Source: Candidatus Omnitrophota bacterium (GTDB lineage Bacteria > Omnitrophota > Gorgyraeia > Gygaellales > Profunditerraquicolaceae). Taken from it: a stretch of 64,000 bases of DNA. Position numbers and translations under genes: made by a program. How positions within the stretch are numbered: position 1 is the first letter of the stretch; every line of letters starts with the position of its first letter. Of this stretch, positions 5,584-61,700 are shown piece after piece. The notes under the pieces were generated by a model, which saw nothing but the letters and a program-made list of their open reading frames with translations, ran no database searches and was not told the origin of the DNA. The stretch lies in the NCBI GenBank assembly GCA_022710715.1, contig JAKLGJ010000001.1, forward strand, positions 362,041-426,040, given 5' to 3'.

Positions 5584-6177
5584 ATGACGAATAAACTTAA
5601 AGCAATCGCGGAATTGAGCAAACGGGACGAAGATCGTTTCAAACGGCTGTATGAACTTATCGCCAAAGGCGTGGATATCGTCGATCCTTTTACCACTTTT
5701 ATCGCCGAGGGCGTAAAAATAGGCAAAGGGACTACAATTTATCCTCTGACGGTGATCGAAGAAGATGTAATCATCGGCAAGAACTGCAAGATCGGGCCGT
5801 TCGCGCGCATCCGGCCGCATGTCCGGCTCAAAGATGAAGTGGTAGTGGGCAATTTTGTGGAAGTCAACCGCTCGACCATGGAAAAAGGCGCCAAAGCCAA
5901 ACATCTGACGTATCTGGGCGACACTACCGTCGGAGAAAAAGCCAATATCGGCGCCGGGACCATCGTGGCCAATTACGACGGCAAAGAAAAGCATAAGACT
6001 CTGGTCAAAAAAGGCGCATTCATCGGCAGTGGATCGATCTTAGTCGCTCCGGTAACGGTAGGCAGGAATGCCATGACCGGAGCCGGCGCAGTGGTTACCC
6101 GTAATCATAATGTTCCGGACAACTGTGTGGTGGTAGGAATTCCAGCCCGCGTATTCAAAAAAGGAGAGAAGAAATAA
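5584..6177 (+). CDS. hexapeptide-repeat acetyltransferase matching the C-terminal domain of GlmU only
   Basis: Aligns along its whole length to the E. coli GlmU C-terminal domain (NFVE..K...GKG.KA.HLTYLGD..IG...NIGAGTI..NYDG..K.KT.....FIGS...LVAPVT.G......AG..VTRN). No nucleotidyltransferase domain is present. Confidence 0.75.
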
Positions 6178-8585: not shown

Positions 8586-8909
8586 ATGAAATCATCTTTT
8601 ACTCTAAGCAGATTATTGCCCCTGTTTATTCTTTTATTGATACTTCCGGGCTGTAAGCTCGGCGGCGGAGGTGGTGGCGGCGGCAGTTCTGCAGCCGGCA
8701 GTCCCGGCGCCGGGATCATCAGCGATATGCAGATGGTCAGCACGCAAGAGCTGACGACACAAAACGACAACCTGACACTTACCGAGAACTTCACCAATCA
8801 GTCTGCGCCGATCAACACCGCAGTCATTCCTGAACCGGCAACCATGGGGTTGCTGTTAGGCGGCGCAGCTTTGATTTTCATCAAAAATAATCGAGCGAAG
8901 GAGCAATAA
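8586..8909 (+). CDS. small lipoprotein with a C-terminal PEP-CTERM sorting signal
   Basis: Lipobox LILPGC followed by a G8 run. C-terminus VIPEPATMGLLLGGAALIFIKNNRAKEQ is PEP plus TM helix plus basic tail. An alternative ATG at 8579 is better placed to the AGGAGG RBS but gives only a featureless 25-aa ORF. Confidence 0.7.
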   Translation: MKSSFTLSRLLPLFILLLILPGCKLGGGGGGGGSSAAGSPGAGIISDMQMVSTQELTTQNDNLTLTENFTNQSAPINTAVIPEPATMGLLLGGAALIFIKNNRAKEQ

Positions 8910-40210: not shown

Positions 40211-40294
40211 TTTGCAATGTTAAGCTTTTTTATTGCATTACGCTAAATGTTTTCTGGCGTTCCTTAACAATATTGCGTTCGATTTTTTACGTTA

Positions 40295-40323
40295 TTGGCA
40301 AGATTGACTTTTTATGTTATAGT
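40295..40323 (+). promoter_or_regulatory. sigma70-like promoter of the short beta-helix gene
   Basis: TTGGCA, 17-nt spacer, TATAGT. Its downstream part is duplicated exactly at 42300-42328. Confidence 0.5.
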
Positions 40324-40374
40324 CTAGTAGAAGAAAAAAATTAGCCAGATCATTATCATAATTCTTGCAGAACT

Positions 40375-42180
40375 ATGAAAACAATCAAAATCTTGCTTAT
40401 AGTGCTGGTAACCCAGTTGTTGTTCTTGTCTTCATTTGTTTATGCAGCCACATACTATGTAGATGGGGCTGTGGCTACGGATAGCGGCAATGGAAGTCAA
40501 TCTTCCCCCAAGAAATATATTAAATCCGGTATCGCTCTTATGTCTGGGGGAGATACGCTTATTATAGCTGACGGTACATACACAGGTACGCAGAATAATA
40601 TGTGTACCGATGGCGGGTGGGATTGGACGGGTATTCCTGATGGATCGTCAGGGGCATACACTACCATTAAAGCAGCTAATGACTTTGGTGTCATTATTGA
40701 TGGTGGCGGGACACTTACTGGATTATATCCTAACGGATTGAGCTACGCGGTCATACAGGGGATAATTTTCCAGAATGGCGGTTCCAATGTATATCTTACT
40801 CATTGCGATCATGTGAAAATTATTAAGTGCGGTGGTGTTGATGCTGCCGCTGGGAATGTATGTAATTTTAATTCAGCTGACGGTGATTATATTTTGTTTG
40901 AAGATTGCTTTTCGTGGGGGAGGGGTAGATATAAATTTCTTATAGGAGGCGGATCAACGTATACTGTGTTGCGGCGGTGTGTAGGGCGATATGACTATCA
41001 CGATGCCGAAAATCCTCATGGCGTTTTTTCCTTTTATGGCGGCTCTACTGCGGATTGCTATGTTCAAAATTGCATTGCTATTGATGGTCTTGCTGTGTCC
41101 GGGTCAAATACACAAGCTCTTTATGCTCCGAACGGATCGACTCGGTTGACTTTTGATTCTTGTATTGTTCTGAATAATGGCGGACCTGGAAACTTTTTTG
41201 AGTCATCTGCAACCTCACCAACCTTAAAAAATAGCGTTATTTGGTATGGGACTGCAACTGATACTGCTGCCTCGCAATCATACACGCCGCCCTCAAGCGA
41301 GACTGTTATTGGTTGTACTCTAGGTAGATTCCCTTATGGGATTATTGCACAAGGGACAACAGTTACCAATTCTATATTTTATGGAATGACACACGATGGT
41401 ATTTCCTGGGCAACTAACGATTATTGTAATTTATACGGTAACGGAAATGCTTATTCAAGCACTACTGGTGGATCGCATAATACATTAGTTAATCCACTTG
41501 TCAACGGTTTGACATATTTACCGCGTATAGAATCTGGATCGACACTTAAAACAGCAGGTTCTTCTGGTGGTCAGATCGGTGCGCAAATAGAATATAAATT
41601 GGGAACCTCAGGATCTCTCTACGGAGAAACCGGATGGAATACGTTAACCAGTGATTCCTTATGGCCATTTCCGAATGAAGATGTGATTCGGGAAAGAATG
41701 CGGGTATATAATCTACATGATGTTAATGGTGCTCGTGGTTTTTGCGCTGACGGCCAGACCCTCACCAAATACATCTGGGAATATTTAGGGAATACCATAC
41801 CTGTGGAAATCTATGAGAGCGGGCGAGATTCCGCGGAAAGTACTTCTGGTAATAATGCCAATAGTGTGAGTTCAGTTGAATCTCCCATTTCCAATCCAGT
41901 TGTAGGTGGTAGTAACAGTGGAGGAGGAGGTGGTGGTGGAAGTTGTTTTATAGCTTCAGCTGTTTATGGCGCAAACGCCAATGAAACGAAAACTTTAAGA
42001 GAGTTTAGAGATGGTTATTTATTAAAATCAAAACTTGGGAATGTTTTAGTAAAGTTATACTACATATCTACTCCTCCAATAGCGCATTATTTAGAAAAAA
42101 GAATTTGGGCGAAGAATGTAATGCGTAAAGTATTAAATCCTCTCGTTGCGTTGGTTAATCAAGAATTAAATAAACGATAG
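40375..42180 (+). CDS. secreted right-handed parallel beta-helix (pectin-lyase-fold) protein with a Gly-run + Cys-initiated conserved C-terminal module
   Basis: Signal peptide, then [45 protein letters not shown] typical of beta-helix proteins. G7-S-CFIASAVYG... C-terminal domain. Confidence 0.8.
   Translation: MKTIKILLIVLVTQLLFLSSFVYAATYYVDGAVATDSGNGSQSSPKKYIKSGIALMSGGDTLIIADGTYTGTQNNMCTDGGWDWTGIPDGSSGAYTTIKAANDFGVIIDGGGTLTGLYPNGLSYAVIQGIIFQNGGSNVYLTHCDHVKIIKCGGVDAAAGNVCNFNSADGDYILFEDCFSWGRGRYKFLIGGGSTYTVLRRCVGRYDYHDAENPHGVFSFYGGSTADCYVQNCIAIDGLAVSGSNTQALYAPNGSTRLTFDSCIVLNNGGPGNFFESSATSPTLKNSVIWYGTATDTAASQSYTPPSSETVIGCTLGRFPYGIIAQGTTVTNSIFYGMTHDGISWATNDYCNLYGNGNAYSSTTGGSHNTLVNPLVNGLTYLPRIESGSTLKTAGSSGGQIGAQIEYKLGTSGSLYGETGWNTLTSDSLWPFPNEDVIRERMRVYNLHDVNGARGFCADGQTLTKYIWEYLGNTIPVEIYESGRDSAESTSGNNANSVSSVESPISNPVVGGSNSGGGGGGGSCFIASAVYGANANETKTLREFRDGYLLKSKLGNVLVKLYYISTPPIAHYLEKRIWAKNVMRKVLNPLVALVNQELNKR
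41944..42177 (+). other. conserved C-terminal module (short paralog)
   Basis: CFIASAVYGA...LREFRDGYLL...VKLYYISTPPIAHYLEKR...LNPLVALV aligns with 51812-52042. Confidence 0.6.
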
Positions 42181-42299
42181 CAATATCTTTCAAGATCAAT
42201 CCTAAAGTAAATTTCCCGCCAAAACAAATTTTAATTAAAACATTGTTATAGAATAACTTACAAACATAAATAATTTGTTTAAAAATATTCAACGTGATA

Positions 42300-42328
42300 T
42301 TGACAAGATTAACTTTTTATGTTATAGT
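42300..42328 (+). promoter_or_regulatory. sigma70-like promoter of the giant beta-helix gene (duplicate)
   Basis: TTGACA, 17-nt spacer, TATAGT. Sequence is identical to 40310 onward. Confidence 0.5.
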
Positions 42329-42379
42329 CTAGTAGAAGAAAAAAATTAGCCAGATCATTATCATAATTCTTGCAGAACT

Positions 42380-45300
42380 ATGAAAACAATCAAAATCTTG
42401 CTTATAGTGCTGGTAACCCAGTTGTTGTTCTTGTCTTCATTTGTTTATGCAGCCACATACTATGTAGATGGGGCTGTGGCTACGGATAGCGGCAATGGAA
42501 GTCAATCTTCCCCCAAGAAATATATTAAATCCGGTATCGCTCTTATGTCTGGGGGAGATACGCTTATTATAGCTGACGGTACATACACAGGTACGCAGAA
42601 TAATATGTGTACCGATGGCGGGTGGGATTGGACGGGTATTCCTGATGGATCGTCAGGGGCATACACTACCATTAAAGCAGCTAATGACTTTGGTGTCATT
42701 ATTGATGGTGGCGGGACACTTACTGGATTATATCCTAACGGATTGAGCTACGCGGTCATACAGGGGATAATTTTTCAAAATGGCGGTTCCAATGTATATC
42801 TTACTAATTGCGACCATGTAAAAATTTTAAAATGCGCTGGAGTTGATGCTGCCGCTGGGAATGTGTGTAATTTTAATTCAGCTGACGGTGATTATATTTT
42901 GTTTGAAGATTGCTTTTCTTGGGGGAGAGGCCGGTATAAGTTTCTGATTGGAGGAGGTTCAACATATACTATCTTGCGAAGATGTGTAGGGCGATATGAT
43001 TATCATGATGCCGAGAATCCTCACGGAGTTTTTTCTTTTTATGGGGGTTCTTCGACTGATTGTTACGTGCAAAATTGTATTGCTGTTGATGGTCTTGCTG
43101 CTTCTGGTTATGGAACTACCGCATTGTATGCTCCTAATGGGTCCACAAGATTAACTTTTGATTCTTGTATTGTTCTGAATAATGGAGGTGCGGGCAATTT
43201 CTTTGAATCCGGAGCGACATCCCCAACATTGAAGAATAGCGTTATTTGGTATGGCACTTCAGCAGGTACGGCGGCTTCTCAATCATATAGTGAACCATCT
43301 AATGAAACCGTTATAAATTGCACTCTTGGTAGATTCCCATATGGAATTATATCAGCCCATACGAGCGTATCTAACAGTATATTCTATGGCATGACGAGTG
43401 ATGCGATCTCTTGGTCTACAAATAATTATTGTAATTTGTATGGCAATGGTAATAACTATTCAAGCACAACCGGAGGAGTAAATAATGTTGTGTATTCGCC
43501 ACTAACCAATGGTTTAAGATACCTCCCTAGAATAGAATCCAGTTCAACTCTTAAGACCGCTGGTTCATCTGGTGGTCAAATTGGAGCACAGATTATTTAT
43601 CGTCTGGGTGTTTCGGGTACTCTTTACGGAGAGACTGGGTGGAATACGCTAACTGATGAGAATCTATGGCCATTTCCGAATGAAGATGTGATTCGAGAAA
43701 AAATGCGTGTATATAATTTGCATGATGTTAATGGTACTCGCGGTTTTTGCGCGGATGGCCAGACCCTCACCAAGTACATCTGGGAATATTTAGGGAATAC
43801 CATCCCTCCGGAAATTTATGGTGCGCCGGCGACGCCGACGATCAGCACGAGTTCTTTAGCCGGGGGGACAACCGGGACAGCGTACAGCCAGACTTTAGCG
43901 GTTTCCGGCGGGACTTCGCCTTATTCCTGGACCGTTGCTTCCGGTTCGTTGCCTGCGGGCTTGAGCCTGAATATTTCTACCGGAGTTATCTCCGGCACGC
44001 CTTCGGCTGTCGGGACTTCGAGCTTTACCGTGCAGGTGATGGATGCCGAGACGGTGACTGATACCCAGGCGCTTTCTATCGTGGTCAGCGCTCCGGATTT
44101 GACCGCGCCCACGATTTCCTCAATCGCTGCGGGAAGTATTACCGGTTCAGGCGCTGCGATCACCTGGACGACCAATGAAGCGGCTACTTCGCGGGTGGAA
44201 TACGGCACGAGCGTTGCTTATGGTTCACAGACTACTTTGGATAGTACCTTGGTTACCAGCCATTCGGTGAATCTTACCGGCTTGAGCGCTAATACTACCT
44301 ATCATTACCGGGTGAAGAGCCAGGATGCGGCGGCTAATGAAACAGTATCCGCGGACAATTCTTTTACTACCGGTGGTTCTACGGATTACGTCAGCCCCAG
44401 CCCGGACGTAAACTTAACTGATTTTGAATCGGTTCCCGAAGAAGGGACAATGACCGTGAATATTCCGGTTGATCCTTCCACGGCTACTTCTGCAGCGATC
44501 ATTTTAACTATTTATGACGCGGAGAATCCCAATGAAGGCAACTTCTATATCAACGGCAACGGAGAGACTGCGATTCCGTACGGCGATTCTTATGATTCCG
44601 TAGATCATACTTTTGCCCCGATCACGATTAACAAGTCTTATCTGGTGCAGGGCGATAATACCATCAGGTTTACCCATTTAGCTACCAGCGGATTTATTGT
44701 CAGGGATGTGACTATTCGTTTGACCTTTACCGGGTCAAGCGATACTACCGCGCCTTCAGCCGTCAGCACCCTGGCTGCTGCTACCGGCACGAACCGGGGG
44801 ACGGTGAATCTGACCTGGACCTCGCCCGGGGATGATGCTGCTACCGGCACAGCCACCAGCTATACCATCAAGTATTCCACTTCCCAGATCACCAATGACG
44901 CGCAGTTTACCGCGGCTACGGATGTGACCGGTGAACCCGCGCCGGCAGTAGCCGGGACTTCGCAATCGATGACGGTTACCGGTTTGACTCCGGGGACGAC
45001 TTATTATTTCGCGATCAAGACCACAGATGAAGCCGGCAATACCGCCACGATCTCCAATTCTCCCGGCGCGCAGGCTAAGCCCAATGTTCTTCCGGTTTTA
45101 GCTGCGATCGGCGCCAAGAGCGTGAATGAGAATGCCGCGCTTTCCTTTACTATCAGCGCTACTGACGCGGATGGCGACGCGATCACTTATTCTGCCAGCG
45201 GTTTGCCTTCCGGAGCCACGTTCACTGCCGGTACCCGGACATTTGCCTGGACGCCTGCGTACACCCAGGCGGGTTCCTATTCCGTAACCTTTACCGCCAC

Positions 45301-48300
45301 TGATACCCAGTCAGCCAGCGATTCCGAAACCGTCACTATTACCGTAGCTAATGTCAACCGCGCGCCGGTATTGGCGGCGATCGGGGCAAAGAGCGGGTCG
45401 GAAAATACTTTATTGACCTTTACTTTGAGCGCTACGGATGCTGACAGCGATGCTTTGACCTATTCCTGCACTAATCTGCCTTCCGGATCGACTTTGAATG
45501 AATCGACCGGCGTGTTCAGCTGGACCCCGTCATATACCCAGGCAGCCACGTACGGGGCGGTGCATTTCGTGGTTTCCGACGGTAGTCTGACGGATACCGA
45601 GAATATCACCATTACCATCGCTAATACCAACCGCGCGCCGGTGCTTGATGCTATCGGTAATAAGTCGGTCAATGAAAACAGCGCTTTGAGTTTTGACCTT
45701 AATGCCACGGATGCGGATGATGATATCGTAGCTTACAGCGCTTCAGGTTTACCTGCCGGCGCGGTTTTCGACGCGGGGAACTTCAGCTGGACTCCGACGT
45801 ACTCCCAAGCAGGCACATACACCGTGACTTTTACCGCGGATGATCTTAGCGGCGGGACTGATTCCGAGACGATCACTATCACTGTGGGCAATCTGAACCG
45901 CGTGCCGGTGTTAGCGGCTATCGGGAATAAGGCCGTGGATGAGAATGCGCTGTTGAGTTTTGTGATCAGCGCTACTGATGCGGATAGCGATACCTTGACT
46001 TATTCCGCCACGAATTTGCCTTCGGGCGCTACTTTTACCGCCGGGACCAGGACTTTCGCCTGGACGCCGGGCGGCACGCAGGCCGGTAATTACAGTGTAT
46101 CTTTCAGCGTGACCGATCCTAACGGCGGCATCGATTCCGAGACGATCACTATTACCGTAGGCGATGTGAATGCTCCTCCGGTTCTGGCAGCTATCGGCGC
46201 TAAATCGGTGAATGAGAATGCGGCATTGAGCTTTGTGATCAGCGCTACTGATGGTGATGGCGACGCGTTGACCTATGCTGCCGCTAATCTGCCTTCCGGC
46301 GCTACTTTTACCGCCGGGACCAGGACTTTCGCCTGGACGCCGTCGTATACCCAGTCCGGTTCGTATACCGTGACTTTCAGCGTGGATGACGGTCTGGGCG
46401 GGACGGATTCCGAAGCGGTGGTGATTACTGTGGCTAATATGAATCGCGCGCCGGTGCTGGGAGCGGTGGGGAACAAAGCCGTGAATGAGAATGCGGCGTT
46501 GAGCTTTACGTTGAGCGCTACCGATGCGGACAGCGATACTTTAGTTTATTCTGCCACAGGTTTACCTGTCGGCGCTACTTTAGACAGCGCGACCGGGTCT
46601 TTTGCCTGGACGCCGACCTACGCGCAGTCGGGCAACTACAGCGTGACCTTCAGTGTCAGCGACGGCAACGGCGGGACGGATTCGGAAACCATCGGTATCG
46701 CGGTGAATAATGTCAACCGGGTGCCGGTGCTGGACGCGGTAGGCGCGAAATCGGTAGATGAAGGGGTAGCTTTGACTTTTACTTTGAACGCTGCTGACGC
46801 GGATAGCGATACTCTGACTTACGCGGCTGCTAATTTGCCTTCCGGCGCCACGTTTACCGCCGGCACGCGCACTTTCGCCTGGACGCCGGGCGGCACGCAA
46901 TCCGGAACTTACAATGTGACTTTCAGCGTGGATGACGGCAACGGCGGCACAGATTCGGAAACAATCGCGATTACCGTAAATAATGTCAATGTCGCGCCGG
47001 TGTTGAGCGCGATCGGCGCCAAGAGTGTGAATGAGAACGCGGCATTGAGTTTTGTGATCAGCGCTACGGATAGCGATGGAGACGCGATAACCTGCGCGGC
47101 TTCCAATCTACCCGCAGGCGCTACTTTTACCGCCGGGACCAGGACATTCGCCTGGACGCCGTCGTATACACAGTCCGGATCTTACACCGTGACTTTCAGC
47201 GTGGATGACGGTTTGGGCGGGACGGATTCCGAAGCGGTGGCGATTACGGTGGCTAATGTGAATCGCGTTCCGGTATTGGCGGCTGTGGGCAACAAAAACG
47301 TGGATGAAAACGTGGCGTTGAGTTTCAGCTTGAGCGCCACTGACGCAGATAGCGATACTTTGACATATTCCGGTGCCGGGATGCCTGTGGGCGCGACTTT
47401 TAATAGTGCCAACGGAGCGTTCAGCTGGACGCCGACCTATACCCAGGCCGGAAGCTATAGCGTAACTTTCAGCGCCAGCGACGGTAACGGCGGCGAGGAT
47501 TCCGAGGCTATCACTATTACTGTCGCGAATGTAAATCGCGTTCCGGTGTTGGCGGCAATCGGGGCAAAGAGCGTGGACGAGGGAACGGGTTTGAGCTTTA
47601 CGGTCAGCGCGACGGATGCGGATAACGATACCTTGACTTATACGGCTGCGGATGTGCCGGCTGGAGCGAGTTTCACTGCCGGAACCAGGACGTTCAGCTG
47701 GACTCCCAGTTGTCTGCAGTCGGGTGTGTATACGGTGACTTTCAGCGTGGATGACGGCAATGGCGGCACAGATTCCGAAGCGGTGGTTATCAGCGTGAAC
47801 AACGTGAATTGTCCGCCGGTGTTAGCGGCGATCGGCGCAAAGAGCGTTAACGAGAACGCGCAGTTGCAGTTTACGGTCAGCGCCACGGATCCGGAAGGCG
47901 ACAGCTTAACTTATTCCGCGGCGGGATTACCGGCGGGAGCGACTTTTGCGGGTTCGACATTTACCTGGACGCCGTCATATAGTCAGGCGGGTTCTGCTAC
48001 AGTGACGATTACTGCCGACGACGGTAACGGCGGCACGGATTCCGAAGCTGTGGTTATCAGCGTGGCGGATGTGAACCGCTCGCCGATCCTGGATCTGACC
48101 GGCAATAAGACGGTGAATGAGAACAGCGTTTTGAGTTTTGATATCAACGCGACTGATCCGGATGGCGACGTGGTGGCTTATAGCGCGACCGGTGTTCCTG
48201 CGGGCGCGGTATTCAGCGCGGGCAGCTTTAGCTGGACACCGTCATATACCCAGGCCGGTTCCTATACTGTGGTCTTTACCGCGGATGATCTCAATGGCGG

Positions 48301-51300
48301 GGAAGATTCGGAAACGATCACCATTACCGTGAATAATGTGAATCGCGCGCCGGTGCTGGCGGCGATCGGGAATAAGAGCGTGAATGAAGCCGCCGCTCTG
48401 GTTTTCAGCGTCAGCTCAACCGACGCAGACGGCCAGGCTTTGACTTTGTCCGCTGCGAACCTGCCTGCGGGCGCTACTTTTAACGCCGGGACCGGGGTGT
48501 TCAGCTGGACTCCTTCGTATTCCCAGGCCGGCGCATTTGCCGGGGTGCATTTCGAAGTTACCGACGGCGCGGCCACGGATAGCGAAGATATTACCATTAC
48601 GGTGAGCAATGTGAACCGGGAACCGGTTCTGGCCGCCATCGGCGCTAAAACGGTGAATGAAAACGTGCAATTGCAGTTTACCGGTTCCGCGACCGATGCG
48701 GACGGCGATGTTTTGACTTACAGCGCTACCGGATTGCCGGCAGGAGCGACCTTCGCGGGTTCGACTTTTACCTGGACGCCGACGTACGCGCAGTCCGGGA
48801 ATTTCACCGTGACCATCAGCGTGGCGGATACTAACGGCGGGACGGATTCCGAAGCGGTGACGATTTCCGTAGGTAACGTGAACCGGCCGCCGGTATTGGC
48901 TGCGGTGGGGAATAAGACTGTAGCCGAGAATGCGGCGTTAGGATTTACGGTCAACGCTACGGATCCGGACGGTGATGCAGTGACGCTATCTGCAGCGAAT
49001 CTGCCTTCCGGCGCGACGTTTAACGCTGCGACGGGCGCGTTCAGCTGGACTCCGGGTTACGCGCAAGCCGGGGCATACGCGACCGTGCAATTCGCAGCCA
49101 GTGATGGCTCTTTGAGTGATGCGGAAACCATTACGATCACTGTTACAAACACTGATACCACACCGGTTTTAGCGGCTATCGGAAACAAGACGGTGACGGA
49201 AAATGCGGCGCTGTCGTTTACGGTCAGCGCTGTTGACGTAGATGGCGACGCTTTGACGTATGCTGCGGCCGGATTGCCGGCCGGGGCTTCGTTCGCCAGC
49301 CAGGCATTTAACTGGACCCCGGGTTATGATCAGGCGGGTACCTATACGGTGACATTCTCGGTGGAGGATGGGGCGGGCAATAGCGATTCCGAAGCGGTTA
49401 CGATTACGGTGAGCAATGTTAACCGCGCGCCGGCGATGGCTGCGATCGGGAATAAGTCGGTGGTGGCTAAGTCCGAACTGACCTTTACCGTCAGCGCTAC
49501 TGATGCCGACGGCGACGCGGTGACTTATGCGGCTTCAGGTTTGTCGGCCGGTGCGACGTTTAATGCCGATTCCGGTGTGTTCAGCTGGATCCCGACCAAT
49601 GCCGACGCCGGGAATCATACCATTACTTTCAGCGCGACGGATGGTTTAGCTTCCGCTACCGAGGCGATCACCGTGGCAGTGGATGTCCTGGATGAAGAGC
49701 CGCCGTATCTGGATTCATTGAATCCGGAAGAGGGCGAAGTGCAGGTTTCGCGCGATTCCGACGTGTTCTTCTACCTGAAGGACGCGCTTAAGGGGGTCAA
49801 TAAGGATACGATCAATTTGAGCATCAAGCGCGAAGGCGACGCCGCGGCGACCAATGTTATCGTCAACGGGGTAAATCAGCTCTCATCGTATCCGAATAAC
49901 GTGATCCTCCAGAGCAGCAGCGGCAATTACGCGGTAAAGTACGATCCTCCGACCAGCCGCGACTATCGCTTTAAATACGAGCAGAAGATCACGGTGACAG
50001 TCAGCGGCCGCGACCTGGCCGGCAATCAGCTGGCGCCGTACACCTATGATTTCACTACCGCCATGCTGCTTAAGGGGCCGAACAAGAGGGTGAGTACCAC
50101 CACTACGACTACGGCTGAACCTGCTCCGGCGCCGGCAGGCGGCGTGGATGGCGCGGTGCAGCCGCCGGCTGCGACCCAGGTGGTGAATAAAGATAATTCC
50201 TGTCTGGTGATGAATAAATCCAGCAACAAAGTGTATATGGTCTGGCAGGACGACGCCGGACAGATCTGGTTCAATAAATCCGAGGACCGGGGGGTGACTT
50301 TTATCCAGGATACCCAGTTGACCGGCGCTTTGACCGGAACGAACCGCAATCCGCAGATGGCCGTGGATGATCCTGGGAACTTGTATGTGATCTGGGAGAA
50401 CGTGCAGACGGATAATTCGTCGGATCTGTATTTTGCCCGGCTGGATAATAACAGCGCTGCCTGGCAGATCGCGGTGATCCCGGCGGATATCGCGCTGGGC
50501 GTTGCGGCGAATCAGGCGCAGCCGTCTTTAGACGTAACTTCGAGCGGCACGGTGGTGATCGCCTGGGTCAACGGCGCTTCCGGTGTATATTATGCCCGGT
50601 CGACGGATCAGGGCGATAGTTTATGGAATCTGACTGCCGCGCAGACCAAACGGGTGGACGACGGGACTGCGGCGGCGTTTGCTTATCCGGAAATCAAGTT
50701 GAGCGTGAATAGTCAGAATAAGTATGTGGTCTGGAGCGCGGAGAAAAATAGCGAGCGCAATATTTATTTCAACGCTTTGAATAATCAGAATAATCGGGTT
50801 TACGCCCAGGATATTCAGATCAACGACGCGAATAGCGGCACTGCGGCGGACCGGCCGAGTCTGGCCATGCGGCCGGAAGTCGGCGGCGGCGGGCAGAAGG
50901 TGGGTATTTGCGCGGCCTGGGAAAATACCGGCGCTGACGGCGATACGGATATTTATTTCGACAAATCGGTTACCGGCGAGGTGTGGGGCGCGGATATTCA
51001 GGTCAACGAAGACGCGCAGACGCCGCAGGCGCAGAAAGAGCCGGCGCTGGCCATGGATGCCGACGGAAGTATTTTTGCGGTGTGGAGCGATTACCGCAAC
51101 GGCGAATGGGATATTTATTACGCCAATTGCCTGGATAACGGGTTGACTTTCAAGACGAATATTCTGGTGAATGCCGATTCCGGCACCGCGGTGCAGGATA
51201 AACCTTCCTTGTACTTGAGCGCGGACGGCAACCACGTGTGCATCTCCTGGACGGATTATCGTGACGGTAACGGAGCGATCTATTTTAACCGCAACTCCTA

Positions 51301-52045
51301 TGTGGATGAGGACACGACTGAAGAGTCTTTTGTGGATGATTCCGCCGGCGGGACGTTGACGGCCACCGGCAATGCGGATATTCAGCGGGCTTCGGTGGTG
51401 CTGCCGGGCAATGTGCTGGAAGTGCCTACGACCGTGACCATCACCAAAGTGGAATGCCCGCCGCCGGATGCCAACGAGTCGATCGCCGAGAAGGCGGTGG
51501 ATTTCGGGCCCAGCGGTACGGTATTCAAACAGCCGGTAACGATCAAAGTGCCGTATACCGCGGCGGATATGAGCGCGGTGGGGATCACCGATGCGCGGCG
51601 GCTGCGGCTGTTCTACTATAACCTGAAGACGTTGATGTGGGAAAAGCTGGCGGATTCGTATGTGGATACTACGAATCAGCTGATCTGCGCCGAGGTGCTG
51701 CATTTCTCGATCTACGGCGCGGGAGACGGCGGGCCGATCGCGCAGGCTGCGACTACGGGCAGCTCGGCTGCGCCTGCGGGCGGCGGTGGTGGCGGCGGCG
51801 GTGGCGGCGGGTGTTTCATCGCTACGGCTGCGTACGGTTCGTATGATGAGCCTAATGTGAAGATACTGCGGGTATTCAGAGATAAATGTTTGATGACCAA
51901 AGAGTGGGGCCGGAAGTTCGTGAAGTTCTATTATCGCCACAGCCCGGCGATCGCGGATTACATTGAGAGCCGCGAAGGGCTGAAGCTGATGGTGCGCTGG
52001 GCGCTCAAGCCGCTGGTGCTGGCTGCGCGCTCCGCCCTCCGCTAA
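42380..52045 (+). CDS. giant (3221 aa) secreted surface protein: beta-helix domain, He_PIG Ig, two FN3, 17 cadherin-like ~90-aa repeats, Ig-like, BNR/Asp-box propeller, and a Gly-run + Cys C-terminal module
   Basis: Single uninterrupted ORF with coding periodicity. N-terminal 143 aa identical to the 601-aa paralog. Asp-box motifs [17 protein letters not shown] and LDNGLTF. C-terminus G11[10 protein letters not shown]... Confidence 0.8.
45086..49700 (+). repeat. intragenic array of 17 tandem ~270-bp (~90-aa) cadherin-like / He_PIG-like Ig repeats
   Basis: Consensus [41 protein letters not shown]...[40 protein letters not shown]. Several units are about 90% identical at the nucleotide level. 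Confidence 0.85.
51812..52042 (+). other. conserved C-terminal module (giant paralog)
   Basis: [76 protein letters not shown], preceded by G11. Confidence 0.6.
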
Positions 52046-52717: not shown

Positions 52718-55700
52718 ATGACAAAAGAAGATCGGTTCTTTCCCCGTATTCTATTTTGTACGGCAATTCTTGCTGTTGTTTCATTTATTCCTGCCTATAT
52801 TTTTTCTGTTTCAGCCAATGAATCTGCCACGTCTTCCTGCCAGCATAATCAAGGAACTTGTTCCAAAGAGCCTCATTGTCCTGGAAAACCCAGTTATCCC
52901 AACCCTCCACCCGGTTGTCCCCAAAAGAAGTATTGCAGTCTTTATCCTATTGCGTTAAATGTAACAGTCATTAGTAATGCCAAGGTTGGAGACCGCATAC
53001 CTGATATCCTTAATGAGGGTGGCCCGGGCAATCTGGGTTGGCTTAGCTGGAATGGTAATAATAGCACTGCGATGTTAGTCAGGAGCTTAATCCCGCCTGG
53101 CGCAAGCTTATTGTACAGAAATCCTTATGATGAGCGCGATCATGTAGTTTCTCAAGGAGACTGGATCAGGGGAATGCCGGGTGATCATAATGGCAGCGCA
53201 ATACGGATTGCTCTAAATATGTTAAAAACCCAGCACGTAACTATACCCGTTTGGGATACTGTTAAAAAGCAGAAGGGAGAACTTCTGTATCATGTATCTG
53301 GATTCGCGAAGGTGCAGATAATTGATTTCAATTTAAGCAAAGACAAACGTATATCGGCGATTTATCTTGGCAAGGTGACGTGTGGTGACGAACAAAACCA
53401 ATCTCCAGTTGCTCATGCCGGAGTTGACCAGCAGGTAGCAATTGGCAGTACTGTTACTTTAGACGCCTCGGCTTCTTCTGATCCCGATGGTGATAATCTT
53501 ACCTATAAATGGGCTATTCTGACCAAACCAGATGAGAGTAGCGCTGTGCTTGTGAATGCTGATCAAGCTAATCCTACTTTCATCGCCGATAAATCCGGAC
53601 AATATACTGTCCAGCTCATTGTTAATGACGGTAAAGTCGATAGCCAACCGGCTGCAGTTACAATAAGCACTATCAATCGTCAGCCGGTTGCTAACGCAGG
53701 AGAGAATGTTTCTGCGCAAGTTGGCTCTGAAGTGAATTTGGATGGCAGCGGGTCTAGTGACCCAGATGGCGATCTCTTAAGCTACCTATGGAGTATTACA
53801 ACCAAGCCCCAGAACAGTAACGCGGTATTAGATCATACCGATATTGTAAAACCTTCCTTTGTTGCTGATGTAGGAGGGCAGTATACCGTTCAACTTATCG
53901 TTAACGACGGTAAACTCGACAGTGCTCCTGCTGTGGCAGTTATCAATACCTTAAATCAAGCGCCAATAGCAAATGCAGGCGCTGATGTCAATGTATTTGT
54001 CGGCGCGCTCATTAAACTGGATGGGAGCAATTCCAATGATCCCGATGGGGATCAATTAACCTATTCATGGAGTATTGTAAGCCAACCCGATGGAAGCAAT
54101 GCTGTGTTGCTGGATCCGGCTACAGCTACGCCGTCATTAACTCCCGATAAAGCCGGAACGTATGTAGTGCAATTGATCGTAAGCGACGGACAATTGGACA
54201 GTGTAGCGACAATAATCCGCGTAATCACGGAAAACCGCTCTCCGGCAGCTAATGCCGGGCAGGATATGAGCGTTAATCTCGGGCAGGTGGTGATTCTGGA
54301 TGGAAGCGCCTCCAGTGATCCTGACGGCGATCCGTTGACTTATATATGGAGTATTACGAATAAACCAGAGGGAAGTGGTACTGCTCTTGCCAATGCAGCT
54401 ACTTCAGCACCATCAATGACTCCCGATTTTATTGGGACATACGATGTGCAATTAATAGTTAATGATGGTAAAGTTGATAGCTCGACTTCAGTTGTGCATG
54501 TTACAGCTATTTCCGTCAATAAACCGCCCGAAGTTCATGCCGGTGACGATGTGACAATTACTTTCTCAGTCGATAGAGCAAATCTCAACGGTTCCGCAAG
54601 CGATGATGGGTTACCGTCAGGCGGTACATTAACAGTCTTGTGGAGTGAGGTAAGCGGGCCAGGCGCGGTTACTTTTGAAGACGCGACGTCTTTAATGACC
54701 ACAGCTAGTTTTTCTCAGGCTGGGACCTATGTTTTAAGGCTAACAGCCAGCGATTCTGTCCTTTCAACCAGCAGCGATATGACTGTAACGGTTACTATGG
54801 CTCCTCGGTGCCTTGCTGATCGCGATATACCGCCTCCGAGCGTCGATGGAAGCGGATCATGGGGATGGATCAACCAGGCTTCTTTGATAAATGCTCGTTC
54901 TGAACATACCGCGACACTTTTGCCGTCCGGAAAGGTCCTTGTTGTCGGGAGTAGTTCGAATGGAGGGGCGACTGCAGAGTTGTATGATCCGGCGACCCAA
55001 CGCTGGACTGAAGTAGCGTCTATGCATTATCCCCGTTTTGCGCATACTGCGACATTGCTGCCTGATGGGAAGGTATTGATTACAGGTGGATGGTCAGGTT
55101 CGAATTCGTATGCTTCTGCGGAAGTTTATGACCCTGCAACGAACACGTGGGCGGACGCCGCGCCGATGAACTCTGCTCGAAGCTGGCATACGGCGAATCT
55201 GTTGAGCACGGGTAAGGTTCTGGTTGTTGGGGGGAACGCAGGGACGGCAGCAGAACTTTACGATCCCGCGACGGATTCATGGGCTTCCGCCGGTTCTCTC
55301 AGCTTGAGCCATGTAGGTCATTCAGCAACAACATTAGCGAACGGCGATGTGCTTGTCATGGGAGGCCGTCCCGTGAATAATGCGACCGAGATCTATCATG
55401 TCGCGAGTAATTCGTGGGAACGTTTGAGCGATGCTCCCGTGGCCTGTGCTTTCTACAGGGCGGTGCTCCTGCCTGGCGGAAGGGTCCTGGTTACCGGCGG
55501 GTATAACGATTCCCAGAGATTGAAGGCCGTGCAGCTTTTCGATCCCTCGGTGAACCAGTGGACACGGGTCAAGGACATGAGTGTCGAGCGTGCCGATCAT
55601 GCTATCGCTATTCTTCCAGACGGGAAGGTGATGGTCGGTGGGGGGTACACCAATACGGATATTACCGATACTGTTGAGTTGTATGACGTTGTTGCCGATC

Positions 55701-58700
55701 AATGGACTAATGAGACCAGTTTGCCTTTAGCAAAAGCTTATTCCACCTGGACGCAATTCTCTGACGGGTCGATTTTGTCCGCGGGTGGATATCATGGCGG
55801 AGCTTTGTCCTCAACGGAAATTCTCGCAAAGGGGATCGCCGGATGGCGTAAGATTGCGTCTATGGGTTCGCCTCGATGGAATCATACTACCACGGCTCTT
55901 GCCGATGGCCGCGTTCTTGTCGCGGGCGGCGCCACGGTATGGAGTAATGCGCCGACCCAGGATGCTTTGGATACAGCCGAAATATATGACCCGGCAACAT
56001 CTCAGTGGTCAGCAACGGGATTAATGAATTTCAAGCGTTTCCGTTTCCAATCGGTTTTGCTTTGTGACGGCAGAGTATTGGCAGCAGGAGGGTATGAAAT
56101 GAATGGGAATAGCCTTGCTCAACCCACTGCCGAGATTTTTGATCCCGTAGCAAACGTTTGGACTAGAGTTGCTGATATGCATTATCCTAGAGGGCATGAA
56201 GCAATCGCGCTTTTGCGTGACGGAAGAGCTTTGATCGTCGGAGCTGTATTGGAAAACGGCGATGAGTTTATCACAAAGACCGCGGAAATTTATGAGCCCG
56301 GCCTTAATACGTGGATATTGACCAGTCCTATGCATGACGTGCGCGAGCATCCGCAGGTAACAACATTGAAAGATGGTCGGGTTTTGGTAACAGGGGGTGC
56401 TTATGTATGGTCAATTCCATCCGGGGTTGATATCTCGGCACAGTCTACCGCAGAGATTTATGATCCTTTGTCTGACCAATGGACATTAACAGCTCCGATG
56501 CATCGCCATCTTTCCGGCCACGAGTCAGTTTTACTCTCAGATGGCCGGGTAATGGTTATGGGTGGGATGAGTTATCCTGAGGGAGTGATTACCAGTGGTG
56601 CGGAGATTTACGATCCGGTCAGTGACACATGGACCGAAGTTGCGCCAATGTCCCAGGGACGTCTTGGTTTTTCTGCCGAGCTTTTGGGCGATGGCCGGAT
56701 TCTGGTCACCGGCGGTGGATCAGCTAACTGGTCTTTGGCTGAGATTTATGATCCTGTGACTAATGTTTGGCATGCGATTCCTTCTATGTTCCAGGGGCAT
56801 GGTTTTCTCTCTAATGGGGGAGCTGTTTTAAATGACGGTAGAGTCATGATCGCAGGAGGATGCAGCGGGTCGACCAGTGGTATAACCGAGCACGTCACTG
56901 GAGTCTTGTCGGAGGTTGAAATCTACGATCCCAATACCAGAAATTTGCCGCCGGCAGTAACCGCTGGCGCGGATCAAAGGATTGTTCTATCTAATAACGC
57001 CGTTTTGACCGGTACTGTCAGTGACGATGGCTTGCCCAGAGGGAATAGTGTTGCCGTCTCTTGGAGCCAATTAAGTGGACCGGCAGGTGTAAGTATTCTA
57101 GATCAACATTCGCAGGTCGCTCAGGCGAGTTTTTCGCAAGAAGGCACGTATGTTTTCCGGCTTACTGCTACGGATGGTGAATTGACCTCTTTTGATGAAG
57201 TGGTGATTACTGTTTTGCCTGTAGCTTCGGATGTTACCCCGCCTGATGTGTCGGTATCCGTCAGTCCTGGAAGCACGATCAACACTGGTGATGTCGTTCA
57301 GATCCGGGTCAGGGCTACGGATAATGTCGGTATTACCGCCTTGCAACTGACAGTTAACGGCAGCGTTTTGGCCCTGCAGCCTGATCCCCAGGATTCGGCT
57401 ATTCAGCAGGCGAGTTTTTCTTCCGAAGTCGCTGGGGTTTTCACTGCTTTAGCAGTTGCCCAAGACGCTGCTGGAAATCAGGGCCAGGCTTCATTGCAGA
57501 TCACCGTTAATGAGCAGACTACGCCTCCGCAGCCGCCGATAGTGGAAATTTCTTCGCCGGCAGACGGTGCACATCTTAGTATGACGCAGACATTCGTTGG
57601 AACAGTATTTTCGTCGAACTTGGTGAGTTACACTCTCGAATACTCGTTTGTCGGTGAGGATAACTTTATTACGTTCGCTACGGGGACTAATGCTGTCAAT
57701 CATGACGTTCTGGGGATTTTGAATACCAATGTTCTAATGAATGGATTCTACGATATCAGATTGACTGCGACAGATGCCAGCGGTCTTACAGTATCAATTA
57801 CAATGCGATACAGTGTCCAGAGTGATCTAAAGATAGGGCAATTCGGGTTTAGCCAGCAGGATCTGGTTATTCCGGTCAATGGTATGCCGCTATCCGTGAT
57901 CCGGACGTATAGTTCATTGAATCCGAATGCCGGTGATTTTGGGTATTCCTGGACGTATGCCATCCAGGATATGAATGTGCAATTCAATGAGTATCGGTCT
58001 GATAATAACGTTGAGTCATTTAGTCAGCGCACGGGTGGAAGCCGGGATATTTCCTTGACTCTGCCGGATGGCCGCCGGACGACATTCACGTATAATCTTC
58101 AAATGGAATCTGTTTTCGGCACGCCGAACTTACAAACAATACGGCAGCTAGCGGTCTGGACACCTCCTCCGGGCGTATATGATACCTTGACCCCGATCGT
58201 ATCCAATCGGCTGATTACTTTGTACAGCACTATAGAAAATACGAGAATTTCTTATTGGGAAGCTGATCCGCAGATGGGGAATATGGATGTTTATGATTTC
58301 CCGGCTTTTATATTGACAACGAAAGAAGGCGTTAAATATTTGATCACCAGGGAAGACCTCGGGAGCCATATGACGGACAGCGCTATTACGGTCCACGCGT
58401 ATGGTAAAGCCCATTTGAGCAGGATTACGGATAGGAATGGGAACTGGACCGAGATAGCTGCTTCGCGGATCGACAGTTACAATGCTCAAGGTGTCAATAC
58501 CCGTTCGGTCATTTTTCAAAGGGACAGTCAAAACCGTATTATATCAGTCACCGATCCTAATAGTCAGTCTAACGGTGGCCCGGCAGCAGTCACCTACGAT
58601 TATGACAGCTCAGGGAATTTGTTCCACGTCAACCGTTTAGTCAGTAATGAGTCCGGTCATGCCCCGGTATATGAGACCACTACATTTCTATACCTTAATC

Positions 58701-61700
58701 CTAACTATCCGCATTACATAACCGATATCCAGGATCCGCGCGGGTTAACTCCGTTAAGGACTGTTTATGACAGCGAAGGCAGGCTTATTGGAACTATCGA
58801 TGCTCAAGGTAATCAGATCAGGCTTACCCATGATATTGCCGGTCATAGTGAAACTGTATATGACCGGCTGGGAAATCCAACTATCCACACATACGACGAC
58901 CGGGGTAATGTTATAGCTACCGTTGATGCGTTGGGCAATACGGTTGAATGCCAATACGACGATAACAACAATTTGATCGCAGAAATCGATGCTTTGGGCC
59001 ACTCGACTATTTATACCTATGATGACCGGGGAAACCAACTGACACGTCGCGACCCCTTAGGCAATGTCACCACTTTGACGTATGATTCTTTAGGGAATAT
59101 TTTAACAGAAACTGATCCGCTTGGTTATGTGACTGAAAATACGTATGATGCGCACGGGAATCTGTTGACGGTCAAAGATGCAATGGGCAACATTACGACT
59201 AATACGTACGATGACAACGGGAATCTGGCAACATCTACCAATGCGCTGGGCAGGACGACTTCTTATCAATATGATAATGCCGGGCATATGATTCAGCAAA
59301 CTGACGCGTTGGGGAATGCGGCGACGTTTACCTACGATTCTAACGGGAATAAACTCACTCAAACCGTAAATCGCGTGAACGGCAGTGAGGCTGAAGCTAT
59401 AACCACCCAATATGTGTACGATTCAGAGAATAGAGTTGTAAGAACCGTTTATCCTGATAGCACCAGCACACAAACTGTGTATAACAACATCGGTAAACAG
59501 GCGGCGGTTATTGATCAATCAGGCAGGCAGACGGCATTCGAGTATGATTCTACCGGTAATCTGGTGAAGACTACGTATCCGGACGATACAACTCAGACTT
59601 CAACGTATGATGTCAATGGCCGGCAATTAAGTACGACTGACGCTGCCGGCCATGTAGTTAGTTTCCACTATGACGCTGTGGGGCAGTTGATACGGACTAC
59701 GTATCCGGATAATACATTCTCGACAACAACATATGACCCTGCCGGACGCACAATCGCGGTTACTGATGCCAAAGGCAACACCACGACGTATTTCTATGAT
59801 AATGCCAATCGTCAGATTTCGATACAATTCGCCGATAACACTGCGCAGGCTACTGAGTATGATGCTTCGGGCAGGATGATCTCTAAGACTGATCAAACTG
59901 GCCTTCAGACCCGGTATGAGTATGACTCTTTGGGCCGGCTGATTAGAGTAACCGACGCGTTGGAGAATGTTACCAGTTATACCTATGATCAAATAGGCAA
60001 TCAACTTACCCAGACAGATGCCAATGGGCATACGACGACCTTTACGTATGACGCCGTGGGGCATCGAATCAGGAGGACTTTGCCTCTGGGGATGTTCGAG
60101 ACGTATCAGTATGACTCAACCGGACAGATGGTTCAGAAAACCGATTTTAACGGAAGAACCACGACGTACAGTTATGATATCATGAATCGTTTAGTCCAGA
60201 AGATACCTGATCCCAGTTTCGGTGCGCCGGCCATTTCATTTATTTATAATAGCTTGGGCCAGCGTATATCCATGAATGACGCGAGTGGCACGACGACCTA
60301 TACGTATGATAACCGCAATCGGTTACTGACAAAATCTACTCCTGAAGGAACGCTAACCTATACGTATGACGTGGTGGGTAATGTCCGGAGTATACGATCG
60401 TCGCATAGTAACGGCGTTTCAGTTGACTACAGCTATGATGTTATGAATCGGCTTGCCACCGTTGCAGATAACCTGTTGCCAGATAATAAAGTGACGAGCT
60501 ATTCGTATGATCAGGTGGGGAATGTGCAGAGTTATATTTATCCCAACGGGGTGCAGTCTGCGTATACGTATAATAATTTGAACCGACTGACAAATTTAAC
60601 GGTGGCTCGATCTTCAACCCTCGCTTCATATACCTATACGCTGGGACCTGCCGGGAATCGACTTTCTGTAGCGGAGTCGGCTGGTCGACGGGTAAATTAT
60701 TCCTATGATGCAACCTATAAATTAACCGGAGAATCCATTTCAGGTGATAATAACGGCGGCAATGGTTCGATATCATATACTTATGACCCTGTAGGCAATC
60801 GCTTGGCCCGGTCTTCGAGTGTTTCGGCTATTTCCAGCCAGGGTTTTACTTATGACGCCAACGATCGGTTGTCTATCGATGGCTATGATGCCAACGGCAG
60901 CACCGTTTCGTCAGGGTCAGATACTTATACGTATGATTTTGAGAATCGTCTCATCAGTTCTACGGCTGGCGGGGGCGTGAGATTTGTTTACGATGGCGAC
61001 GGCAATCGTGTAGCGAAGACTTCGGGAGGGGCTACGATCCAATATCTGGTCGATGACCGAAATCTTACCGGATATGCACAGGTAATGGAAGAGATTGCGG
61101 GGGGAACCGTACAGAAGAGTTATACTTATGGCCTGGCGCGGATCTGCCAGAATCAGGGCGGCACGGTGAGTTTCTATGGTTATGACGGGCATGGGAATGT
61201 GCGGGTACTGACCGATTCCAATGGGGCCGTGACGGATACGTATGATTATGATGCGTTTGGGAATATGATTCAACATGTTGGAGATACTGCCAATATGTTT
61301 TTATATTCCGGTGAACAACTAGATTCGAATGTTGGCTTTTATTTCTTACGCGCTCGGTACATGAATCCTTTTAATGGACGATTCTTAACATTAGATAGTT
61401 ACATGGGTGATATGTGGTTGCCATTATCGTTGCATAAATATTTTTATGCATATAATAATGCGATTAATGCTGTTGATCCCTCTGGTCAAATAACTTATTT
61501 GGATGTAATGTCGATAGATGACCTGATTGACGCTCCCATTTTTATTAAATCTAATAGAGTGAGTGATAAATCAATTATTATGAAGTCTAAGGCGAAAAGC
61601 CTTTTATCTGTGGTAGAATCGAGGGCTCAAGAATGGTTTGGAAGACCTTACGAATTTGGAGCAAAAGGTGATAAAGAACCTGATTACGCCATAGATTGTA

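Follow-up and report, generated by a model that had tools for sequence, protein, structure and literature searches.

The so-called choice-of-anchor domains belong to surface proteins that occur with alternative anchors, for example LPXTG, PEP-CTERM or type IX secretion system (T9SS) signals (bioRxiv 10.1101/2023.03.06.531300). Among the C-terminal domains catalogued in NCBIfam is the CFI-box-CTERM domain (NF041770), which has been named by curators and which, as far as the databases and the searched literature show, is functionally uncharacterised. The present analysis concerns a stretch of 64,000 nucleotides (hereafter the window) from a Candidatus Omnitrophota bacterium (GenBank assembly GCA_022710715.1, contig JAKLGJ010000001.1, positions 362,041 to 426,040 of the forward strand), in which two genes for secreted beta-helix proteins end in a common C-terminal module. 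Judged by their sequences, both tails are with hardly any room for doubt members of the CFI-box-CTERM family, and the CFI box is read here as a portable module for the anchoring or docking of proteins at the cell envelope, a reading to which a probability of about 0.5 is given. The feature is real and is rightly kept apart from the classical signals, yet it is no new kind of element, the family being already catalogued. A preliminary description of this DNA had called the module uncharacterised, which holds for its function and not for its identity.

The two genes lie head to tail on the forward strand, and the features of main concern are the following.

40375-42180, forward strand: gene for the paralogue of 601 residues, from the list of open reading frames (ORFs), with, in order, a signal peptide, a Pel9A-like right-handed beta-helix, a Ser/Gly-rich linker and a CFI box
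40375-40446, forward strand: predicted Sec signal peptide of the 601-residue protein, identical to that of its paralogue, read from the sequence, with a putative cleavage site
41920-41943, forward strand: linker of seven Gly and one Ser directly before the Cys of copy 2, read from the sequence
41944-42177, forward strand: CFI-box-CTERM copy 2, 78 residues (NF041770 match at 41944-42147)
42380-52045, forward strand: gene for a surface protein of 3221 residues, from the ORF list, with domains from Pfam and NCBIfam
42380-42451, forward strand: predicted Sec signal peptide of the 3221-residue protein (24 residues, then Ala), read from the sequence, with a putative cleavage site
51779-51811, forward strand: linker of eleven Gly, encoded by GGC, GGT and GGG codons
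51812-52042, forward strand: CFI-box-CTERM copy 1, 77 residues (NF041770 match at 51812-52018)

From its N- to its C-terminus the 3221-residue protein comprises the signal peptide, a beta-helix, Ig-type repeats (He_PIG, Big_9, cadherin-like and PKD), a BNR-like region, a weak ZU5-like region, the eleven glycines and the CFI box, the last 89 codons of the ORF being taken up, as far as the stop codon, by the Gly run and the 77-residue module. The beta-helix of the 601-residue protein gives a faint match to PF22842, and its homologues carry PF22842/PF13229; the ORF ends with GGSNSGGGGGGGS-CFIASAVYGANANETKTLREFRDGYLLKSKLGNVLVKLYYISTPPIAHYLEKRIWAKNVMRKVLNPLVALVNQELNKR followed by the stop codon, CFIASAVYGANANETKTLREFRDGYLLKSKLGNVLVKLYYISTPPIAHYLEKRIWAKNVMRKVLNPLVALVNQELNKR being the copy 2 module (41944-42177). 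The modules start with CFIATAAYG in copy 1 and CFIASAVYG in copy 2, have their Cys at residue 3145 of 3221 and residue 524 of 601, respectively, and are identical at 32 of 76 aligned residues (42%). A Gly run directly before the Cys, as claimed for both proteins, is present in the larger one (G11); the smaller one has GGSNSG7S at this place, with a Ser between the run and the Cys (GGGGGGGSC). No third CFI module was found by a six-frame regular-expression scan of the window or its 10-kb flanks, and the module is absent from the third giant ORF (52718-62026). Orthologues of the 3221-residue protein at 52% identity are present in two metagenome-assembled genomes of Omnitrophota (L001, L002), and both end in CFI boxes that lack a transmembrane (TM) helix.

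The assignment to the family is based on profile matching. When searched in isolation, the modules match NF041770 with 106.8 bits (copy 1, E=3.4e-31) and 77.4 bits (copy 2, E=5.2e-22); the cutoff is 40 bits, and the matches span all 69 positions of the profile (1-69). The full-length proteins score 99.8 bits (3221 residues) and 72.7 bits (601 residues). Since one curated hidden Markov model (HMM) is matched at both of these E-values, the likeness of the modules is far beyond chance, and translation together with this common HMM bears out the sharing of one C-terminal module, including the copy at 41944-42177, by both beta-helix proteins. Besides the score, the window copies have the CFI start and the C-terminal place, after a low-complexity linker on an exported protein, by which the family is recognised. 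Apart from NF041770 no NCBIfam family matches the modules at E<=1, Pfam, which holds no CFI-box model, gives no relevant match, and a sequence-profile search of the PDB with the module returned zero relatives. The earlier separation of the module from PEP-CTERM, LPXTG, GlyGly-CTERM, T9SS and SLH signals is thereby upheld. The HMM match that was obtained is to a named domain and in that part answers to the overlap with a characterised sorting or anchoring domain that the preliminary description had envisaged; the function of the matched domain is not characterised.

The distribution of the module was examined with a search profile (A1) built from the two window copies and 64 relatives, with which 1.84 billion cluster representatives were searched. 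At the level of 50%-identity clusters, 31,195 matches were obtained at E<=1e-3 and 24,586 at E<=1e-10, and in nearly all of the best 150 matches (proteins of 123-4045 residues) the match ends a few residues from the C-terminus. A scan of GTDB, with one genome per species, for the exact peptide CFIATAAY gave at least 585 confirmed loci. Among the matches listed, the best in GTDB is from Omnitrophota (68% identity), and the carriers belong to Omnitrophota, Nitrospirota, Geobacteraceae, Syntrophia, Gammaproteobacteria, Bdellovibrionaceae, TA06, Dehalococcoidia and Firmicutes; they include an isolate, Geomonas oryzae S43 (Geobacteraceae), whose CFI protein is encoded on NZ_RAHW01000006.1 (L006). 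All 70 relatives retrieved independently by HMM search match NF041770, and their passengers carry 72 Pfam families, all typical of extracytoplasmic proteins (Ig-like domains, beta-helices, beta-propellers, M6 proteases). In a set of 80 GTDB loci with 10-kb flanks, holding 87 CFI ORFs, a signal-peptide-like hydrophobic region is present in 67 of the 79 complete N-termini and a lipobox-like motif in 11. Among relatives, Gly makes up 31% and Ser 16% of the 20 positions that precede the Cys. Proteins of 100-135 residues with a seemingly stand-alone CFI box, which made up all 65 matches of the first search, were rejected as a separate class: at three such loci (L083-L085, around position 6001) an upstream ORF enters the CFI box in frame or after a frameshift, which indicates truncated or frameshifted gene calls, with an internal Met start or a break at or upstream of the Gly-run repeat.

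The AlphaFold modelling that the preliminary description had proposed as a check gives an all-alpha domain. With the A1 alignment, AlphaFold2 predicts for copy 1 a compact four-helix domain (mean predicted local distance difference test, pLDDT, 89.3; predicted template-modelling score, pTM, 0.70) with helices at module residues 2-8, 14-27, 31-52 and 55-76. The model of a TM-bearing relative (P0052) has the same four helices, a break at a Tyr-Pro (YP) motif and a long fifth helix formed by the TM segment and the tail; its poly-Gly stretch is disordered (pLDDT <50). From the order of the helices in these models, Cys1 would lie at the membrane-distal end of the bundle. Cys1 is present in 100% of 306 unique modules and in all 70 relatives, and the CFI motif is conserved at 99-100%. 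Positions conserved in at least 94% of the 306 modules are C1, F2, I3, A4, T5, A6, A7, G9, S10, V16, L19, R20, F22, R23, D24, L27, G33, Y40, Y41, S44, P45, A48, I51, R62, L65 and P67.

Most relatives extend past helix 4: the near-invariant YP comes first, then a stretch of some 20 residues that is hydrophobic, and at the end a cluster of Arg and Lys. The TM-like stretch with a basic tail is present in 179 of 210, 74 of 87 and 267 of 299 relatives in three sets, fractions that are biased towards TM-bearing forms by the TM columns held in A1 and by the use of CFIATAAY in the genome scan. The TM-less subtype accounts for 32 of 299 unique modules, or about 10-15% of the relatives. With YP, TM helix and Arg/Lys tail present in about 85-90% of the relatives, the window copies are an exception. 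They do not belong to the majority subtype with a TM helix and basic tail after helix 4, their only C-terminal tails being AARSALR and VNQELNKR. The claim that neither module has a TM helix is confirmed by hydropathy, the maximal Kyte-Doolittle mean over 19 residues being 0.86 and 0.68 in the window modules against 2.41 in the TM-bearing P0052. The modules of the family are basic, with a mean charge of +3.3 per 70 residues and positive values in 91%, and the 180 passenger residues upstream carry -3.8 per 70 residues; the window modules have a net charge of +8 each, with the short tails included. The positive charge is higher in TM-less modules (+4.9) than in those that bear a TM helix (+3.1); the Mann-Whitney p of 2.5e-5 is not corrected for relatedness.

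Some rare TM-bearing members show a further arrangement, in which the CFI box, TM helix and RRR are followed by a second signal-peptide-like segment with an AxA site and then by an outer-membrane beta-barrel of Phenol_MetA_deg type of about 260 residues (PF13557, E=4e-10). Such fusions were seen in P0074, P0076, P0078, P0127, P0213, L003 (548-2149) and L057 (4458-6866), and no barrel of this type is encoded within the window. The fusion may be a Rosetta-stone link of CFI proteins to an outer-membrane barrel.

The architecture of the relatives places the CFI box in a slot that is used by anchors. Among the 70 relatives there are 26 matches to choice-of-anchor families (U 10, D 9 and Q 7). The beta-helix domain of the 601-residue protein was also used for a comparison of passengers: of its best 120 homologues, 12 end in a CFI box, 11 of these being TM-less, with a CFIATAA[YF]GTP flavour; other homologues end in a T9SS sorting domain (P0219, P0230), a dockerin (P0233, P0240), FN3 domains or nothing. 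As the CFI box, the T9SS domain and the dockerin occupy the same place on homologous passengers, the CFI box is interchangeable with known attachment or sorting modules. A sorting, anchoring or self-processing function had been proposed earlier; sorting or anchoring is best supported by the architecture of the relatives, and self-processing finds no support beyond the Gly-Cys dipeptide.

According to the anchoring or docking reading, the CFI box would be a basic module of four helices and about 70 residues that folds by itself and that, carried on a disordered Gly/Ser linker, would retain Sec-exported proteins at the envelope. The flexible linker would present the passenger, and in TM-bearing forms the protein's TM helix would hold the CFI box at the surface of the membrane. 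The succession of helix 4, YP, TM helix and Arg/Lys stop-transfer tail makes the CFI box of most members the putative extracytoplasmic, membrane-proximal part of a type-I anchor, and by the positive-inside rule the tail would be cytoplasmic and the CFI box would lie on the outer face of the cytoplasmic membrane. Since the window copies are TM-less and the domain forms their very C-terminus, it must act there by itself. The most likely mechanism for the TM-less subtype would be non-covalent docking, either to an anionic membrane or exopolysaccharide (EPS) surface or to TM-bearing CFI proteins or another receptor; the docking would keep the beta-helix passengers, polysaccharide-active or adhesin-like and encoded at the end of an EPS locus, near the cell. 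Cys1, which would be unpaired and extracytoplasmic, probably has a chemical role, for example in an intermolecular disulfide or another covalent link.

Several points weigh against the anchoring or docking reading, in addition to the bias of the TM fractions and the uncorrected relatedness in the charge comparison given above. It leaves the invariant Cys at the domain boundary and the high conservation across phyla unexplained. Cross-phylum identity amounts to 55-68%, with about 25 invariant or nearly invariant positions that include the charged R20, R23, D24 and R62; such conservation exceeds the needs of a passive stalk and may reflect a conserved partner or some function in chemistry. No conserved partner near the CFI genes was found by all-versus-all clustering of the ORFs at the 80 loci with their 10-kb flanks, the best non-CFI neighbour cluster being present at only 9 of the 80 loci and looking like a generic regulator, and tblastn of all window proteins against the 80 loci showed only CFI proteins to be shared. 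The literature search found no paper that mentions the CFI-box domain. A profile-HMM search had been suggested earlier as a means of finding whether the module recurs at C-termini together with a particular processing enzyme: the recurrence was observed and no co-occurring enzyme was seen around the 80 loci. The unexplained Cys and the conservation both suggest some chemical step or a partner that is itself conserved, and for this reason the rival explanations are retained.

One of these takes the CFI box as a cleaved sorting signal: a dedicated sortase-, exosortase- or rhombosortase-like enzyme would cleave the box and transfer the passenger to an acceptor in the envelope, in the manner of PEP-CTERM, LPXTG or MYXO-CTERM signals. 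This is a possible explanation that we nevertheless hold to be unlikely. The '-CTERM' in the name groups the CFI box with the curators' putative sorting signals, and in most members the Pro-containing YP at the outer edge of the TM helix, followed by Arg/Lys, gives the tripartite layout that signals of this type have. Several substrates are encoded at one locus (three at L041, two at L026), the box co-occurs with choice-of-anchor passengers, and the conservation across phyla would suit a partner that recognises it. The organism of the window uses at least one system of this kind, as is evident from the following gene.

8586-8909, forward strand: PEP-CTERM protein with a lipobox, ending in IPEPATMGLLLGGAALIFIKNNRAKEQ before the stop codon (TIGR02595 20.6 bits, cutoff 16)

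This ORF served as the positive control for the PEP-CTERM models (TIGR02595/PF07589), which match neither CFI module at E<=1. Its lipobox Cys had been described as immediately followed by a run of eight Gly; Lys and Leu stand between them. The 40 kb upstream of the two CFI genes form a Wzx/Wzy-type EPS locus resembling the loci associated with XrtA/PEP-CTERM, with a Wza-like exporter, chain-length determinant, ATPase and tyrosine kinase (all with sub-threshold TIGR030xx matches), glycosyltransferases, a flippase, a Wzy-like polymerase, a deacetylase, an acyltransferase and an AsnB-type amidotransferase that matches TIGR03108 with 627 bits, below the 817-bit cutoff. As the ORF at 8586-8909 is a bona fide PEP-CTERM protein, one EPS locus encodes PEP-CTERM and CFI-box proteins. 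Recognition of the CFI box by a sortase-type enzyme is, however, difficult to reconcile with the distance of the CFI motif from the TM helix (about 68 residues, a whole folded domain), which is unlike any known sortase-type signal. Moreover, the 10-15% or so of members that lack the TM helix and basic tail, both window copies included, could not be engaged in the usual way by a membrane-embedded sortase. No candidate enzyme is conserved beside the 80 loci, the window and its 10-kb flanks contain no gene that could be recognised as coding for an exosortase or another sortase-like enzyme, and the CFI box is found in monoderm and diderm lineages alike.

The invariant Cys could alternatively serve the association of CFI boxes with one another, which would bundle and form interchain disulfides, with TM-less proteins riding on TM-bearing ones in the manner of a dockerin on a cohesin; this is considered improbable. 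Omnitrophota encode both a TM-bearing form (P0008) and TM-less forms (the window, L001 and L002), the single invariant Cys has no partner within the domain, a dockerin stands at the same position in homologous passengers, and CFI genes occur in tandem and as fused ORFs with two CFI boxes (P0066-P0069). Self-association is, however, disfavoured by the strongly positive net charge, and the monomer is confidently predicted as a closed bundle. Many CFI carriers are strict anaerobes, for which extracellular disulfides are less favoured.

A Cys-dependent self-processing or covalent transfer is a third way to account for Cys1, and a very doubtful one. It would proceed by an N-to-S acyl shift at the bond before the Cys, the resulting thioester being resolved by hydrolysis, with release, or by a nucleophile of the envelope, by analogy with the chemistry of hedgehog proteins and inteins and on a new all-helical scaffold. 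The invariance of the Cys in all 306 unique modules and all 70 relatives, its unpaired and extracytoplasmic state and its place exactly at the domain boundary would accord with such chemistry, and the conserved polar residues T5, Y8, S10, R20, R23, D24, Y40, Y41 and S44 could form a catalytic environment. In 54 of the 87 CFI ORFs a Gly stands before the Cys, and GGG directly precedes the Cys in 102 of 214 relatives. The other residues found there are A, S, F, E, R, K, H and others; G, A or S make up about 80%, and in about 38% of the relatives the residue is not Gly. The Gly-Cys dipeptide, in which the preliminary description had seen a superficial likeness to an autoprocessing site, is replaced by Ser-Cys in copy 2 of the window. 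Were the idea nevertheless correct, the CFI box would be a new all-helical, Cys-dependent covalent-attachment module that, by way of a thioester or another covalent intermediate with the residue before the Cys, passes the passenger to an acceptor such as the EPS of the locus or a lipid. This would be a hedgehog-like chemistry of independent invention, at work in tens of thousands of surface proteins of bacteria, with the TM-less and TM-bearing forms as two ways to position the reaction; we regard this, too, as very improbable.

The two window genes also permit an evaluation of chance similarity, or of a tail duplicated privately in this lineage, an origin that the adjacency of the paralogues could suggest. 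The paralogues had been described as otherwise very different-sized proteins; residues 1-142 of the two are nevertheless identical and the first 492 are 88% identical. At the DNA level the first 300 coding nucleotides and about 80 nucleotides upstream, which take in a promoter-like TTG(G/A)CA-17-TATAGT, are 100% identical, and identity between 40215-41850 and 42220-43855 falls to about 70% by 1.4 kb. Two promoter-like sites were noted.

40295-40323, forward strand: promoter-like TTGGCA-17-TATAGT with a TG upstream, before the 601-residue gene (consensus match only)
42300-42328, forward strand: near-identical promoter-like site before the 3221-residue gene (consensus match only)

The modules differ far more than these duplicated 5' parts: at 42% amino-acid identity, with a GC content of 56.7% in copy 1 and 31.6% in copy 2 (window 44%) and in spite of the identical 5' ends, the tails are not copies of each other. 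Together with the E-values of the two profile matches and the occurrence of the module in at least 24,586 clusters elsewhere, this refutes a chance likeness or a lineage-private duplication, the latter having been named in the preliminary description as an outcome that would tell against the module. Recent gene conversion or recombination is suggested by the sequences of the 5' ends; the 5' parts appear to have been homogenised or recombined and the two modules to have separate histories, which is consistent with a portable module. The GC content of the 3221-residue gene is 40-42% over its first 1.2 kb and 53-60% over the remaining 8.4 kb (43580-52045); the gene looks chimeric, with a body that is perhaps horizontally acquired, and the amino-acid composition of the repeats could contribute to the difference.

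Other features of the locus are described here in their own right. Directly upstream of the 601-residue gene lies the following gene.

38675-40210, forward strand: polytopic membrane protein of 511 residues, without a Pfam or NCBIfam match

The protein belongs to a rare family with 15 homologues. Three loci of homologues have been inspected, one of them in a polysaccharide biosynthesis context (L089), one in a glycan context with GtrA, GT2 and GT87 (L090) and one in an unrelated metabolic context (L088); none of the three holds a CFI gene, and the protein was rejected as a CFI-specific processing enzyme. It may be an undescribed glycosyltransferase or polymerase of GT-C-like type. Just before the Gly linker of the 3221-residue protein there is a weak ZU5 match at 51329-51565 (residues 2984-3062; E=1.7e-4, 22.2 bits, Pfam cutoff 21), and a stretch homologous to this region precedes the CFI box of a Nitrospirae protein (L016). 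Some eukaryotic proteins have ZU5 domains that cleave themselves. The third giant ORF (52718-62026, forward strand, 3102 residues) comprises PKD and Kelch regions, 18 RHS/YD repeats, an RHS-associated core (residues 2844-2924) and a C-terminal NlpC/P60 domain (2975-3081), a layout which, as read from the sequence, is that of a putative RHS-type polymorphic toxin with a peptidoglycan-hydrolase tip. The 10 kb beyond the end of the window (L086, 1-9548) hold genes similar to those of type II secretion systems (T2SS) or type IV pili, namely a T2SSC-like protein with a PDZ domain, PilN and a T2SSG pseudopilin, together with a protein of 1842 residues without domains; the giant proteins could be exported through the machinery that the T2SS/type IV pilus-like genes encode.

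The CFI box forms about 25,000 clusters at 50% identity, spread over many phyla and with giant Omnitrophota proteins among its carriers, and so ranks with the more abundant of the unexplained tags that surface proteins of bacteria bear at the C-terminus. If it is an anchoring or docking device, it predicts which proteins of many uncultured lineages stay with the cell, and it could serve as a display tag; if its Cys performs chemistry, this would be a new mechanism of protein attachment. The division into TM-bearing and TM-less forms, the higher charge of the TM-less forms, the swapping with T9SS domains and dockerins on one family of passengers and the culturable carrier Geomonas oryzae S43 are what the present analysis adds.

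A comparison with known systems sets the CFI box apart from several of them. With the Hint domain of hedgehog proteins and inteins it has in common, in copy 1, the tripeptide G-C-F at the N-terminal boundary of a C-terminal domain. The Hint domain is an all-beta domain of about 150 residues; the CFI box differs from it in its length of about 70 residues (77 in copy 1), in its predicted all-alpha fold of four helices, in the lack of any Pfam Hint match and in the variable residue before the Cys, and the Hint reading was rejected, in agreement with the preliminary description. Lipoboxes and Cys signals of the MYXO-CTERM type resemble it in the invariant Cys with a usually small residue before it. 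The CFI Cys, however, is internal, follows a hydrophilic poly-Gly stretch in place of a hydrophobic region and is about 68 residues from any TM helix. A lipoprotein reading was rejected on the ground that Cys 524 of 601 and Cys 3145 of 3221 follow poly-Gly and not a hydrophobic segment.

The PEP-CTERM/exosortase system resembles it in that it, too, tags the C-terminus of Sec-exported adhesin-like proteins, many of them giant, whose genes lie near EPS loci, and the TM-bearing CFI relatives share with it the order of Pro-containing motif, TM helix and Arg/Lys tail. CFI modules, which are not known to depend on an exosortase, differ in having no PEP motif, no match to TIGR02595 and a folded domain of about 70 residues before the TM helix, which the window copies lack. 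Dockerins and the C-terminal domains of T9SS substrates share with the CFI box the C-terminal slot on homologous beta-helix passengers, and, as is proposed for the CFI box, they are autonomous small domains of attachment and not of catalysis; the predicted four-helix bundle of the CFI box has no sequence or structural similarity to either. A dockerin is a Ca-binding pair of EF-hand-like motifs, and the T9SS C-terminal domain is a beta-sandwich. The system that remains is NF041770 itself, to which the window copies are alike over the whole 69-position model and from whose usual form they differ in ending a few residues after it, without the YP, the TM helix and the basic tail.

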